The notes under the pieces: model-generated
What the model was told of the DNA's origin: nothing
Databases searched by the model: none
Seen by the model: only the letters and a program-made list of their open reading frames with translations
Source of the DNA: a phage
Length of the DNA: 43,655 bases
Strand: one strand, 5' to 3'
Assembly (NCBI GenBank): GCA_029093185.1
Contig: GCA_029093185.1_4348.1
Program-made: the position numbers and the translations under genes
In this document: positions 6,040 through 30,527 of the stretch, in pieces
Position numbering within the stretch: the first letter of the stretch is position 1
How the letters are laid out: each line of letters begins with the position of its first letter

Positions 6040-6068
6040 ACTATAATAGCGAACTATTCACATGTCAA
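6040..6068 (-). promoter_or_regulatory. Sigma70-type promoter with embedded operator palindrome
   Basis: Minus strand TTGACA (rc of 6063-6068), 17 nt, TATAGT (rc of 6040-6045); contains TAATAG-CGAA-CTATTC. A degenerate second copy (TAATAT-GGTA-CTATTC) lies at 6088-6107 just upstream of the XRE gene. Confidence 0.6.
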
Positions 6069-6132
6069 TGGGCTTTTCTAAAATAATTAATATGGTACTA
6101 TTCACATATCAACTGACTAAGGAGTAATTGAC

Positions 6133-9106: not shown

Positions 9107-9522
9107 CGAAACTTAGTATACATTGCGAATAATGGGAAATCAAACATAATCGCACCTATTGACATTATGAAAATCTTCGTTTAAGGTGCTTTTGTATCTT
9201 AGTTACTTTGATTCCTGTTCACCTTGTAAAACCGCTTAAAACGCAGCTGCGCGCAGCGCAAGCAAAGTGTTAAGCGAAAGTTTACTGAACATAAGAATTA
9301 TCGTAACTTTCCTTCCTAAGTATCTCCGGTTGCCCTGGGCAAGCTCTATTCTCATCGGCAGCATATCTCTTAAGTATCTGATTTTCTTAATGTGCCGTAG
9401 ATTCGCAACCGTAAAAATGTAACGATTATTGGGCAGGCTTAAGCCTGCCCTTTAGCTACCAAGTAATAAGAATAAAGGCACAACCCTCCCCGAAGAATCA
9501 CAACGGCAACGTAACTATTCTC

Positions 9523-9556
9523 TTGCACACCCCAACATAATAGGTTACTATTCACT
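9523..9556 (+). promoter_or_regulatory. Early promoter (TTGCAC-17-TACTAT) with operator palindrome
   Basis: TTGCAC 9523-9528, 17-nt spacer, TACTAT 9546-9551; TAATAG-GTTA-CTATTC overlaps the -10. Confidence 0.55.
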
Positions 9557-20231: not shown

Positions 20232-20258
20232 AAGGCCCCATTATGGGGCCTTAGTTTT
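20232..20258. terminator. Bidirectional rho-independent terminator
   Basis: AAGGCCCC-ATTAT-GGGGCCTT flanked by a T-run on the plus strand and an A-run upstream; sits between convergent genes. Confidence 0.6.
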
Positions 20259-20461
20259 CAACGGAATCTTGTGTTTAAATCCTGCTCATGGACAACCCTC
20301 AGAACAGTGTCATAATCCCCGTATCTTCCAGGTTCAAATATATCTAATGCCTTGTAAGCAGACATTGCGTCAGGGAAAACCTGCAGAACCTTTTTAACCC
20401 GGCACAAGTCACCGTCGAACTCTTCATCGAACTCTTGAACTACTTCGCAAATTGCATACAT
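20258..20461 (-). CDS. Small acidic antisense moron protein
   Basis: 67 aa, about 14 acidic versus 8 basic residues; strong AGGAGGTG Shine-Dalgarno; own promoter and terminator. Confidence 0.6.
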   Translation of the reverse strand: MYAICEVVQEFDEEFDGDLCRVKKVLQVFPDAMSAYKALDIFEPGRYGDYDTVLRVVHEQDLNTRFR

Positions 20462-20488
20462 TTTTCACCTCCTGTTTAAGTTAACTGA

Positions 20489-20517
20489 ATAGTACCCTAT
20501 TATATTGGGGTGTGCAA
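20489..20517 (-). promoter_or_regulatory. Early-type promoter with operator palindrome driving the antisense moron
   Basis: Minus strand TTGCAC (rc of 20512-20517), 17 nt, TACTAT (rc of 20489-20494); TAATAG-GGTA-CTATTC. Confidence 0.55.
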
Positions 20518-20569
20518 ACTATTTATTTACGTATTCCAGTTATTCCTCCGAATTGTAAATGTTGGAATA

Positions 20570-20585
20570 AACTATTCGAATAGTT
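20570..20585. promoter_or_regulatory. Perfect 16-bp palindrome AACTATTCGAATAGTT
   Basis: Same half-sites (CTATTC/GAATAG) as the recurrent operator but abutting with no spacer; adjacent to a TTGACT hexamer. Confidence 0.4.
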
Positions 20586-20836
20586 GACTTTTCACTAAAA
20601 ATATGATAAGCTCCACCTGAGCTTGTGAAGTATGAACAAGCGACCGCGGCGCGGGCAGGTAACGGAGCGGGACGTAAGTCCTGAGTGTAGTTACGCTGAC
20701 GCGTTCGGAAGGGCCATACTCTATTGCTTGTGTAAAAAGTAACTGGTTTACTGAGATTACGCCGTTTCTATGTTTAAATGATAAGGACTAGCGCCCCGCT
20801 TTATGGCGGGGCTTTACTTATCGAGAAAGGGGAAAC

Positions 20837-21223
20837 ATGAATCTTAAAGCAACTGTCGTAGCAGGAGCATGTTTCATCATCCTGGTTTACGCACACGGCA
20901 TCTACCAGTATCGCAGCGGATGGAACGAAGGCCGGGCTAATCTCGTTTCGCAGCAACAGCAGAAAGCACAGGCTGAGTTAGCGAAGAAAACACAACGGCA
21001 GCAGCAGGATGAATCGAAGGCCGCCGCCGCTGACAACGAAGGCAAGACGAAATCAGAGGTGATTACCCGTGAAGTCGTTAAGTACATTAAAACGCCTGGT
21101 CGCAGCGTGTGCACTTTTGACCCTGAGCGCGTGCAGCTCAAGTCCCGCGCCGTCGCCAACGCCAATTCCATCCCCGGATACGACGATGATGCAGCCGCCG
21201 TGCAAACTGGCGCAGCCAAGTAG
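20837..21223 (+). CDS. i-spanin (Rz-like)
   Basis: 128 aa; N-terminal transmembrane segment (ATVVAGACFIILVYAHGIY) followed by a Gln/Ala-rich periplasmic region. Confidence 0.65.
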   Translation: MNLKATVVAGACFIILVYAHGIYQYRSGWNEGRANLVSQQQQKAQAELAKKTQRQQQDESKAAAADNEGKTKSEVITREVVKYIKTPGRSVCTFDPERVQLKSRAVANANSIPGYDDDAAAVQTGAAK

Positions 21224-21332
21224 CGACGCTGATGAGGATTTGGCCGTCGACGTTCAGAATGCTGAATGCGTACGGCAACTGAGACTGAAAGTGTTCATGT
21301 TGCAGGATTACGTGAGGAATATTCTGGAATAG
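21069..21332 (+). CDS. o-spanin (Rz1-like lipoprotein), overlapping the i-spanin in another frame
   Basis: 87 aa; signal peptide with lipobox LTLSAC, then a proline-rich mature region; starts inside the i-spanin gene and extends past it. Confidence 0.6.
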   Translation: MKSLSTLKRLVAACALLTLSACSSSPAPSPTPIPSPDTTMMQPPCKLAQPSSDADEDLAVDVQNAECVRQLRLKVFMLQDYVRNILE

Positions 21333-21414
21333 TTGCCTTGCATGTTGGAATAATTTATTCTTGACATGTAAATCCGGGTGGCCCGGATTCCAACGTCCAG
21401 GGGACATACTGACT

Positions 21415-23183: not shown

Positions 23184-23210
23184 GAGAGGGACTTCGGTCC
23201 CTCTTTTCAT
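23184..23210 (+). terminator. Rho-independent terminator after the major capsid gene
   Basis: AGAGGGAC-TTCG-GTCCCTCT followed by TTTCATTT. Confidence 0.6.
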
Positions 23211-27809: not shown

Positions 27810-27835
27810 AAGGCCCCGAAAGGGGCCTTTTTTAT
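27810..27835. terminator. Bidirectional rho-independent terminator
   Basis: AAGGCCCC-GAAA-GGGGCCTT followed by TTTTTTATT; also terminates the convergent antisense operon. Confidence 0.65.
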
Positions 27836-29584: not shown

Positions 29585-29612
29585 AATTATACCCTCAGTA
29601 AGTTACTGGTGA

Positions 29613-29641
29613 ATAGTACCCTATTATATTGGGGCGCGCAA
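29613..29641 (-). promoter_or_regulatory. Early-type promoter with operator palindrome driving the antisense moron operon
   Basis: Minus strand TTGCGC (rc of 29636-29641), 17 nt, TACTAT (rc of 29613-29618); TAATAG-GGTA-CTATTC; a 24-bp identity with the promoter at 20487-20510. Confidence 0.55.
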
Positions 29642-30165: not shown

Positions 30166-30527
30166 AAGCGCTGTATGAATTTGCGCAATGGTGTTTTGTT
30201 GACCGCCACAAACGTAAGCAATTCGACGACATCGCGGCAGGGCACCAGGCGGCTTTGATTGCAATGGGCGTGATTAAAGAACCGCAGATGAAAGAAACGA
30301 CGGGGCCTGAATGCCCCGTTTCTCTTATCGACGTGTTCGAGAAATACCGTGCCATTAAATTCCTACAGCGCGAAACAGATGATACTATCGTTATAATCCC
30401 GCGCGATGCGCTCAAATGGCAAGATTTGGTAGCGTTTCGTGATGTCGCCGGTTACGGCATAAGTTTGTTCGAAGCCGAGGTTATCATGGGCTTAGACGGA
30501 ATATTTGAGGGCAGAGAAGATGGCTGA
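30126..30527 (+). CDS. Tail assembly chaperone frameshift extension (GT-like; -1 frame, no independent start required)
   Basis: Frame open from 30126 to 30527 and overlapping the last 40 nt of the G-like ORF; GAAAAG (30157-30162) is a candidate slippery site. Confidence 0.4.
   Translation, partial: APHRQPRETIGKVKALYEFAQWCFVDRHKRKQFDDIAAGHQAALIAMGVIKEPQMKETTGPECPVSLIDVFEKYRAIKFLQRETDDTIVIIPRDALKWQDLVAFRDVAGYGISLFEAEVIMGLDGIFEGREDG

Follow-up and report, generated by a model that had tools for sequence, protein, structure and literature searches.

A conserved promoter and a predicted structured leader RNA upstream of the spanin genes in Guernseyvirinae phages

Results

The DNA analysed here is a phage contig of 43,655 nucleotides (nt; GCA_029093185.1_4348.1, NCBI GenBank assembly GCA_029093185.1), hereafter the window, and our subject is the interval at positions 20518–20836, directly ahead of the i-spanin gene. 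This interval very probably specifies a promoter-driven, structured, non-coding leader RNA. The window derives from a Kagunavirus-type siphophage of the subfamily Guernseyvirinae. Segment 20462–20836 matches Escherichia phage Bas70 at 100% identity, and ~180 phage records match it at 94% or more, the hosts being E. coli, Salmonella, Raoultella and Shigella. In the Bas70 annotation the genes form a single long rightward unit that runs from small early genes through the holins and endolysin, terminase, portal and head morphogenesis genes to a Hoc-like gene, with the holin and endolysin ~8 kb upstream of the interval, elsewhere in the operon. After the Hoc-like gene come a terminator (20232–20258), an antisense moron (in the window phage), the studied interval, the i- and o-spanin genes, and the scaffold, major capsid and tail genes. 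A first-pass annotation, made from the letters of the window, had described the terminator as bidirectional and had bordered the interval with the promoter of the moron; the sequence does contain the terminator, and 20486–20517 holds a promoter motif on the minus strand that recurs at other places in the window.

Strong intrinsic terminators lie inside the late rightward operon at 23184–23205, 27810–27829 and 30299–30320, the first of them only 22 nt ahead of the next essential gene, so that some read-through or antitermination is needed. The near-identical phage Bas70 has 83 annotated genes, none of which is for an antitermination protein, as judged from the annotation only and without profile searches of the hypothetical proteins. 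For comparison, 48 related loci were fetched via the i-spanin protein and compared segment by segment. The promoter–RNA element, taken over both of the copies that many Kagunavirus carry, falls into at least six sequence classes, A to F.

The interval contains a predicted sigma-70 promoter of the extended −10 type that is conserved among these classes. Its −35 hexamer, TTGACT (20584–20589, plus strand), is found at one fixed position in every class, reading TTGACT or, in most class B loci, TAGACT; a 17-base pair (bp) spacer separates it from the extended −10 element TGaTAAGCT (20604–20612, plus strand). As expected for an extended −10, the TG is invariant and the base that follows it is free in all classes; for the hexamer itself, classes A, C and D have TAAGCT whereas class B has TACGCT. 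Because this hexamer matches the consensus at only three of six positions, a simple promoter scan passes over it, and the assignment is instead based on the conservation of both position and sequence across classes. The GenBank record of phage fBC-Eco01 annotates the same stretch as a predicted host promoter, which constitutes an independent computational prediction. From the promoter geometry, transcription is predicted to start at ~20619–20620. Promoter position, a GC hairpin near the spanin gene and the lack of a conserved open reading frame (ORF) together delimit a predicted non-coding transcript of ~200 nt (20619–20821, plus strand), which would be either a terminated product or the 5′ leader of the spanin messenger RNA (mRNA).

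An inverted repeat, AAGCTC-cacct-GAGCTT (20608–20624), spans the −10 hexamer and the first transcribed bases. In classes A, C and D its arms are invariant and its loop varies. Read on the minus strand, it is scored as a terminator-like hairpin, and it would compete with the first stem of the RNA, P1, in transcripts begun further upstream.

In our model, the first ~105 nt of the predicted transcript fold into a 5′ hairpin followed by a 65-nt composite hairpin. The former, P1 (GCUUGU/ACAAGC, 20621–20641, plus strand), forms the extreme 5′ end of the RNA. The latter (20644–20708, plus strand) is composed of helices P2a, P2b, P2c, P2d and P3, and comprises ~24 stacked base pairs with internal loops; its base, CCG(C)GGCGCG/CGCGUUCGG, has a bulged C plus tandem G·U pairs and its apex is the P3 hairpin GGGAC-GUAA-GUCCU (20669–20682, plus strand). 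P3 is followed by a conserved internal-loop strand, GAGUGUA (20683–20689, plus strand), which is invariant in classes A, C, E and F and is replaced by GAGUGAG in class D and by AGCGUAA in class B. The core is completed by a 3′ tail, AAGGGCC-N6-CUAUUGCUU (20709–20729, plus strand), in which invariant blocks (AAGGGCC and CUAUUG) flank a hypervariable hexamer (20716–20721).

Classes A, C, E and F served to build a covariance model of the element, R1. This model has a single match in the window, at 20611–20732 (147.8 bits, E value 1e-40), which includes P1 and 24 nt of 3′ tail, and it also aligns classes B and D, which were left out of model building. Base pairs were counted over the six sequence classes and 49 distinct sequences. 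In the core alignment, which was fitted to R1 so that the figures lean towards the structure, 97.7% of the cells pair, compared to 87.8% in shuffles, and both partners have changed in 17 of 30 pairs; the covariation score of 0.292 (0.114 in shuffles) was reached by none of 500 shuffles, and sliding the 3′ partners lowered pairing to 28–40%. This excess of compensatory changes over both shuffled and slid controls is what a structured non-coding RNA should display. As one example, a single pair of the composite hairpin occurs as CG in 29 sequences, UA in 16 and AU in 3, and P3 is found as GGUGC/GCACU, GUGCC/GGCAC, GGGCGU/ACGCCC and GCACG/CGUGU. In P1, 99.6% of the cells pair and four of the six pairs show changes on both sides, most of these being contributed by class B, the class with the least certain alignment.

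Independent single-sequence folds agree with the R1 structure, each class alone giving the same nested architecture, and RNAalifold on a MAFFT alignment returned P2a and P2b only (CCG(C)GGNGCG/CGCN′UUCGG, where N–N′ is C–G, U–A or A–U). Several core positions are predominantly G·U and thus the RNA fold fits the plus strand only. Two additional pairings were considered and discarded: that of GCGGNG (20646–20651) with the distal GCCGU motif, because the variable base shows no covariation, and a pseudoknot between GAGUGU (20683–20688) and AUACUC (20716–20721), because no other hexamer of the module varies as much as the latter, and its changes are not compensated. The first-pass annotation had concentrated on a palindrome and a hairpin in this interval; the covariation-supported structured RNA that lies between them (20621–20708), and which is the main feature of the interval, was missed.

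The promoter–RNA module is better conserved than the genes beside it. In loci L034, L035 and L048 the stretch 20532–20836 is 95–98% identical to the window whereas the i-spanin gene is only 74–81% and the scaffold and capsid genes are 82–84% identical. Locus L037 shows the same contrast (spanin gene, 77.5%), as does Salmonella phage S103 (interval, 96.0%; capsid gene, 83.2%). Among 50 distinct class A modules, variation is limited to the promoter spacer, the base after TG, the hairpin loops, the hexamer 20716–20721 and the ribosome-binding site, that is, to loops and linkers between long invariant blocks. Variable neutral sites beside fixed blocks argue for purifying selection and not only recent spread. 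Class B is a diverged homologue present in Jerseyvirus-type loci (L038–L047) in which the layout and several sequence blocks are kept. Class A is represented by 182 records and class B by 269, 264 of which are Salmonella phages. The module is thus close to universal in the subfamily: it is found in ~450 Guernseyvirinae records, compared to 463 in which this capsid gene is found across 80% or more of its length.

Outside these phages, the module has no match in 5,426 complete E. coli genomes. A motif scan of 185,579 genomes (one per bacterial or archaeal species) gave nine hits, all in unrelated metagenome-assembled genomes, and none of the eight that were checked with the family profile matched it. 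These results led us to reject host mimicry and a prophage origin. Genuine metagenome matches are mostly on ~44-kb phage-type contigs and the remainder are on shorter fragments.

The module moves as a unit. Phage FSL SP-101 (L179) carries a class A RNA in a Jerseyvirus backbone, indicating that promoter and RNA were exchanged together. FSL SP-101 was compared with the window and with phage SETP7 for a co-inherited partner gene, but its genome is too mosaic for any single gene to stand out. The portal gene, the Hoc-like gene with the RNA module, and the 3′ part of the DNA polymerase gene with the single-stranded DNA-binding protein and exonuclease genes are all closer to the window than to SETP7, and so is the 3′ part of a cassette at 9.3–9.5 kb.

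In many Kagunavirus genomes the pattern of conserved blocks occurs twice. Copy 2 lies ~11.6 kb upstream of copy 1, between the leftward helix-turn-helix and helicase-primase genes and the first rightward early genes, and hence at the very start of a ~30-kb rightward operon. It has the same promoter and ~105-nt core, and the two copies diverge beyond the AAGGGCC...CUAUUG tail, where copy 2 continues into a 3′ domain and terminator unlike those of copy 1. Natural hybrids are also found, in which a class E core is joined to a class C 3′ domain. R1 run with filters off did not find a second copy in the window. The position of copy 2, in a divergent region beside the helicase-primase operon, and the A/U-rich 3′ domains would suit a replication primer or R-loop RNA, in which a promoter-driven structured RNA and an A/T-rich stretch prime DNA synthesis as at the ColE1 or T4 origins. 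There is very little chance that this is the role of the element, as copy 1, the universal copy, sits within the virion gene block and neither origin-type repeats nor a link to replication were found.

Two observations concern the copy 2 slot. In the class D copy 2 of phages Golestan (L106, 760–800) and Shashou (L107), the 3′ domain contains a (CUCA/CACU)n repeat, of ~7 versus 3 units, that is complementary to the class D internal-loop strand GAGUGAG. In the window, the slot at the head of the rightward operon is taken by a cassette (9150–9470) with TTGACA at 9160–9165, ~270 nt, and a terminator, GGGCAGGCTTAAGCCTGCCCTTT, at 9431–9453. This cassette is present in 397 phage records, most at 60–80% identity over nearly the full length, and a three-sequence consensus fold has 55 pairs, both partners having changed in eight of them. 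The cassette may specify another structured RNA, unrelated to the first.

Downstream of the core, copy 1 continues into an A/U-rich 3′ domain. Its motif GAGAUUACGCCGU (20753–20765, plus strand) contains the pattern GAUU-n-GCCGU, which is common to classes A, B, C and D. The GC hairpin that the first-pass annotation had reported ahead of the spanin gene, followed by TTTACTTATC, is indeed present: GCCCCGC-TTTATG-GCGGGGC (20793–20812, plus strand) is listed by a terminator scan, and the i-spanin ATG (20837) lies 24 nt after the stem. The hairpin has a folding energy of −17.9 kcal/mol, and across 30 sequences 99.5% of the cells pair, with changes on both sides in two pairs (CG to GC or UA, and GC to AU). 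In class A the flanks GAUAAG/CUUAUC lengthen the stem in the minimum free energy fold, and by eye class B has UAUACG/CGUAUA at the same place. The i-spanin start codon is preceded by the ribosome-binding site GAAAGGGGA (20823–20839 with the start codon, plus strand), which is GGGG or GGAG among relatives.

The tail of this hairpin is UUUACUUAU in class A and UUAGCGUAU in class B (UUAGCG, weaker still). By comparison, terminator 27810 has seven uninterrupted U's (UUUUUUAUU from the stem) and terminator 23184 has UUUUCAUUU. Because the U-tract is poor, and weaker in class B, while the stem covaries, the hairpin is probably a leaky terminator or a stem of the 5′ untranslated region (UTR) rather than a clean stop. 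In read-through transcripts it would join the spanin 5′ UTR, according to our reading of the sequence.

These features bear on whether the RNA acts apart from the genes that follow it. An independent ~200-nt RNA gene, its core serving as a protein decoy or sponge or pairing with targets (for example in host takeover or anti-defence) and spanin read-through being incidental, would account for the extreme primary-sequence conservation, unpaired stretches included, for the exchange of the whole promoter–RNA module between phage backbones, and for the promoter and terminator of copy 2 and the separate promoter of the genes downstream of it. We nonetheless consider a stable trans-acting small RNA unlikely. 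A strong Rho-independent terminator with a long U tail and a discrete 3′ end was not found, and the tail of copy 1 (UUUACUU; UUAGCG in class B) is unlike those of Hfq-type small RNAs or efficient terminators. The spanin start of copy 1 follows at 24 nt, a gap too short for another promoter. Moreover, the E. coli genomes searched hold no similar sequence to mimic, no target or partner was identified, and the mosaic comparison pointed to no single co-inherited gene.

The same layout could be that of a riboswitch-like or factor-dependent attenuator in which the 5′ core senses a metabolite, signalling nucleotide or protein and the 3′ domain and hairpin decide between termination and read-through. 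A conserved 5′ domain with conserved internal loops, joined to a 3′ domain and terminator that differ between copies 1 and 2, is typical of such elements. Further, GGAGCGGG (20664–20671) can pair with the 5′ arm and loop of the terminator, CCCGCUUU, and a comparable pairing is seen by eye in class B. This putative antiterminator strand, however, is located deep inside the would-be aptamer, ~130 nt upstream of the terminator. Terminator/antiterminator complementarities can be drawn in each class, but they lack covariation and are broken in the natural hybrids, where the class E core and class C 3′ domain no longer maintain the long-range complementarity of copy 2. No Rfam aptamer matches, even at E values up to 10. 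An attenuator is a decidedly unlikely reading.

Alternatively, P2–P3 and/or the 3′ hairpin could be RNase III or RNase E signals, or 5′/3′ stabilisers, that set the ends and half-life of the spanin–head mRNA. The stacked pairs and internal loops of the composite hairpin, the presence of more than one copy per genome, and the possible extension of the 3′ hairpin by an outer helix beside the ribosome-binding site would fit such a role, as would a similar covarying hairpin after the next putative promoter (21371–21391). A processing or stability signal is improbable, given that the element lies right at the start of the transcript, a place where there is little to be gained from processing, that strongly conserved single-stranded blocks and a promoter are unexpected for a cleavage site, and that there are one or two copies, not one at each gene junction.

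Upstream of the promoter, the first-pass annotation had emphasized an operator-type palindrome. The perfect 16-bp palindrome AACTATTCGAATAGTT is present at 20570–20585 (either strand), and the −35 hexamer that was noted next to it is also real, although it shares two bases with the end of the palindrome and so does not simply adjoin it. Three perfect 16-bp palindromes were observed in the window with 0.67 expected; the palindrome alone is weak evidence. Class A keeps it, but the Jerseyvirus-type relatives do not preserve its right arm, class B having TTTATTCAAAAAGTAG there instead. The conserved upstream elements are, rather, TATTCC/GGAATA half-sites, and the emphasis on the palindrome, which is specific to one sequence class, was misplaced. 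One half-site pair, the direct repeat TATTCCagtTATTCC (20532–20546, plus strand), is a candidate regulator-binding site that is nearly invariant in classes A and B, with 20532–20546 the sole exact match in the window. The conserved portion of the palindrome region is the inverted repeat GGAATAaacTATTC (also given as GGAATAnnnTATTC; 20564–20577, plus strand), which has only one arm in common with the palindrome, is retained in class B as GGAATActtTATTC, and has a second exact copy, GGAATAattTATTC, at 21347–21360. The half-sites would probably bind a regulator that times the late promoters.

The conservation of half-site clusters upstream of the promoter and their recurrence at 21313–21360 before the scaffold gene are also what would be expected if the locus were a DNA-level operator, at which a phage repressor or activator binds the palindrome or half-sites of a plain restart promoter and the fold has no function. 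This account is highly improbable. Pairing-preserving covariation is not explicable by DNA binding, copy 2 in other Kagunavirus retains promoter and RNA without the TATTCC/GGAATA half-sites, and the right arm of the palindrome varies as described above.

The recurrent GGAATA/TATTCC cluster (21313–21360) lies between the o-spanin stop and the scaffold start and consists of GGAATATTCTGGAATAG, 17 nt, and GGAATAATTTATTC. Both phage types have kept this cluster, which shares bases with an extended −10-like TGgAATAAT. Downstream of it, the stem of the hairpin at 21371–21391 shows compensatory changes between Kagunavirus- and Jerseyvirus-type phages. The region 21313–21391 is probably a co-regulated promoter and 5′ stem for the scaffold/capsid mRNA.

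The only ORFs in the interval are of 25 and 36 amino acids. The longer one (20632–20742, plus strand) starts with ATG and is annotated as a hypothetical protein in several records, Bas70 and fBC-Eco01 among them, yet it is scarcely credible that the interval encodes this 36-amino acid protein. Its start codon is GTG in L013 and the ATG is gone in L028 and all class B sequences, and 1-nt insertions or deletions shift the frame in L002, L008, L023, L024 and L027. In class B the ORF is largely deleted, including most of its 5′ part. There is no usable ribosome-binding site, and substitutions track the helices rather than codons. We thus rejected the ORF as a gene, and the earlier statement that the interval has no convincing ORF holds.

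Searches for known RNAs were negative. None of 4227 Rfam families scored at the gathering threshold in the whole window, and at E values up to 10 region 20450–20900 and the copy 2 loci gave chance-level hits only. No transfer RNA (tRNA) or transfer-messenger RNA was found. A 'tRNA-Ser' annotated or predicted in Salmonella phage celemicas (L178, 235–312), in phage demigod and at L042 2654–2732 looks like a false positive; it is on the minus strand over the 3′ end and terminator of the Hoc-like gene and unrelated to the leader. A boxA, an ops element and mimicry of the type I-E CRISPR repeat by the terminator stem were likewise rejected, since by-eye comparisons with consensus sequences were unconvincing and the stem differs in class B. 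Full-text literature searches found no description of the leader RNA, and the fBC-Eco01 paper only lists predicted promoters and terminators. Hence, this is apparently an undescribed leader RNA family that is near-universal in Guernseyvirinae.

Two observations relate to the upstream neighbour. The ~32-nt promoter motif TTGCACACCCCAAtATAATAGGgTACTATTCA (TTGCAC, 17 bp, TACTAT) recurs at 20486–20517, 29610–29634, 9523–9554 and 6042–6104, where it precedes the moron and early genes, and has the same consensus as the PHIRE-predicted 'phage promoters' of the fBC-Eco01 paper. The antisense 67-amino acid moron (20258–20461, minus strand), which separates the Hoc terminator from the RNA module, occurs in only four of 49 related loci (L001, L014, L015 and L026) and is a recent insertion with its own promoter.

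Discussion

Our analysis suggests that the promoter restarts rightward transcription after the terminator at 20232–20258 and that the interval would be the ~218-nt leader of a spanin–scaffold–capsid–tail transcript. This reading follows from the succession of promoter, folded core and a hairpin 24 nt before the ATG that leaves no room for another promoter. The first-pass annotation had proposed that the region either restarts transcription or hosts an attenuator or a small RNA, and these broad alternatives are borne out, there being a conserved promoter and a hairpin that ends a conserved non-coding RNA; the interpretation as a whole, with its misplaced emphasis, is partly supported. The upstream half-sites may, probably through a DNA-binding protein, set the time at which the promoter fires.

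How the leader acts is a more tentative matter. We lean, with considerable reserve, towards processive antitermination in cis. In this mechanism the folded 5′ core would act on the RNA polymerase that has just made it, enabling that polymerase to pass the leader hairpin and the terminators at 23184, 27810 and 30299 in the manner of the HK022 put RNAs and without a phage protein, and the ~200-nt terminated RNA would be the product of unmodified polymerases. The put RNAs are promoter-proximal, form two stem-loops, occur in two copies and need no phage protein (PMC9378689). Antitermination is preferred because essential genes downstream sit behind strong intrinsic terminators and because the leader shares this layout: it is promoter-proximal, has two stem-loops, is found in two copies in many relatives and is accompanied by no annotated antiterminator protein.

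Several points weigh against this interpretation. The leader has no sequence or structural homology to put, and R1 gives no hit in the put regions of HK022. Downstream of copy 2 come a terminator of its own and, beyond that, a distinct early promoter; this copy thus looks like a free-standing RNA gene, an arrangement better suited to a trans-acting RNA, and the window, which is without copy 2, has an unrelated promoter–RNA–terminator cassette in its slot. The near-invariant long unpaired stretches suggest contacts beyond those that put needs. Finally, polymerase could read through the leader hairpin simply because the U-tracts are weak, and an unrecognised antiterminator could be among the many hypothetical early proteins. 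It is doubtful, albeit conceivable, that the folded core represents a new structural class of protein-independent antiterminator RNA, a put analogue unrelated in fold. We are just as hesitant about its possible role as an antiterminating switch for late-gene read-through (and, with copy 2, for read-through of the rightward operon) throughout a subfamily of virulent E. coli and Salmonella phages that rely on host RNA polymerase alone.

Guernseyvirinae (Kagunavirus and Jerseyvirus) are among the most often isolated phages of E. coli and Salmonella and are candidates for therapy and biocontrol. The module is among the most conserved stretches of their virion gene block and is unannotated, or mis-annotated as a tiny protein, in ~450 genomes. 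If it is an RNA-only antiterminator, a mechanism characterised mainly in HK022-like temperate phages would extend to virulent phages and to a different fold. Should it be a sensor or act in trans, it would count as a new regulatory RNA of phages. The promoter, 105-nt RNA and hairpin offer a compact handle on late gene control, and the covariance model is ready for annotation.

Comparison with known systems

In phage T7, RNase III sites set mRNA ends. The leader resembles T7-type RNase III hairpins in being a long irregular hairpin with internal loops that is present in more than one copy in a phage genome. Unlike them, it is at the extreme 5′ end of a predicted primary transcript, is inherited with its promoter, and has conserved single-stranded flanks. 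Riboswitch and attenuator leaders also have a conserved, structured 5′ domain, a variable platform and a terminator hairpin directly before the regulated genes, but here none of the 4227 Rfam families matches, no alternative pairing is supported, and the distance from core to terminator, ~85 nt, is unusually long.

The nutL and nutR sites and the ribosomal RNA (rrn) leaders are, like the present element, RNA signals in two copies near operon starts in which a hairpin is followed by a conserved single-stranded block. The rrn P1 promoter has a GC-rich discriminator after the −10, and the discriminator of the leader promoter is similarly GC-rich (CCACC). However, the conserved YCUAUUG is not boxA (GCUCUUUA) and, unlike boxB of nut, the P3 loop is not conserved. 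These phages are not known to have an N-like protein.

In the lambda late leader, the sigma-70 promoter pR′ is followed by the 194-nt 6S RNA and the terminator tR′, at which the Q protein acts, and then by the lysis, head and tail genes. The layout described here is alike, as an untranslated leader of ~200 nt and an intrinsic terminator precede Rz/Rz1-type spanin, head and tail genes. The systems differ in that no Q homologue is annotated here (Bas70 annotation), the lambda leader is not a conserved covarying structure, and the holin and endolysin genes are here ~8 kb upstream. Homology to lambdoid late leaders was considered and rejected; the weak R1 hit (14 bits) in the HK022 pR′ leader, the sole match in that genome, covers a P1-like hairpin alone.

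The leader RNA is not a member of the put family. A homologous two-stem structure of ~70 nt was not found when R1 was run over the whole HK022 genome with filters off, nothing being returned in the PL and PR leaders in this search, which did not include an alignment by hand. The leader core is ~105 nt whereas put is ~70 nt, it is followed at once by its own hairpin, and it is found in virulent siphophages whereas put is found in lambdoid temperate phages. put acts in a protein-independent manner via the zinc-binding domain of the β′ subunit of RNA polymerase. What the leader shares with put is its setting. It is located just downstream of a promoter and upstream of the operon terminators (its own hairpin at 20793, then 23184, 27810 and 30299). 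As in HK022 putL and putR, the structure begins ~2 nt after the predicted start and consists of two adjacent stem-loops with bulges and internal loops, and two paralogous copies per genome are found in many relatives, each heading a long operon with intrinsic terminators and with no dedicated antiterminator annotated (PMC9378689).

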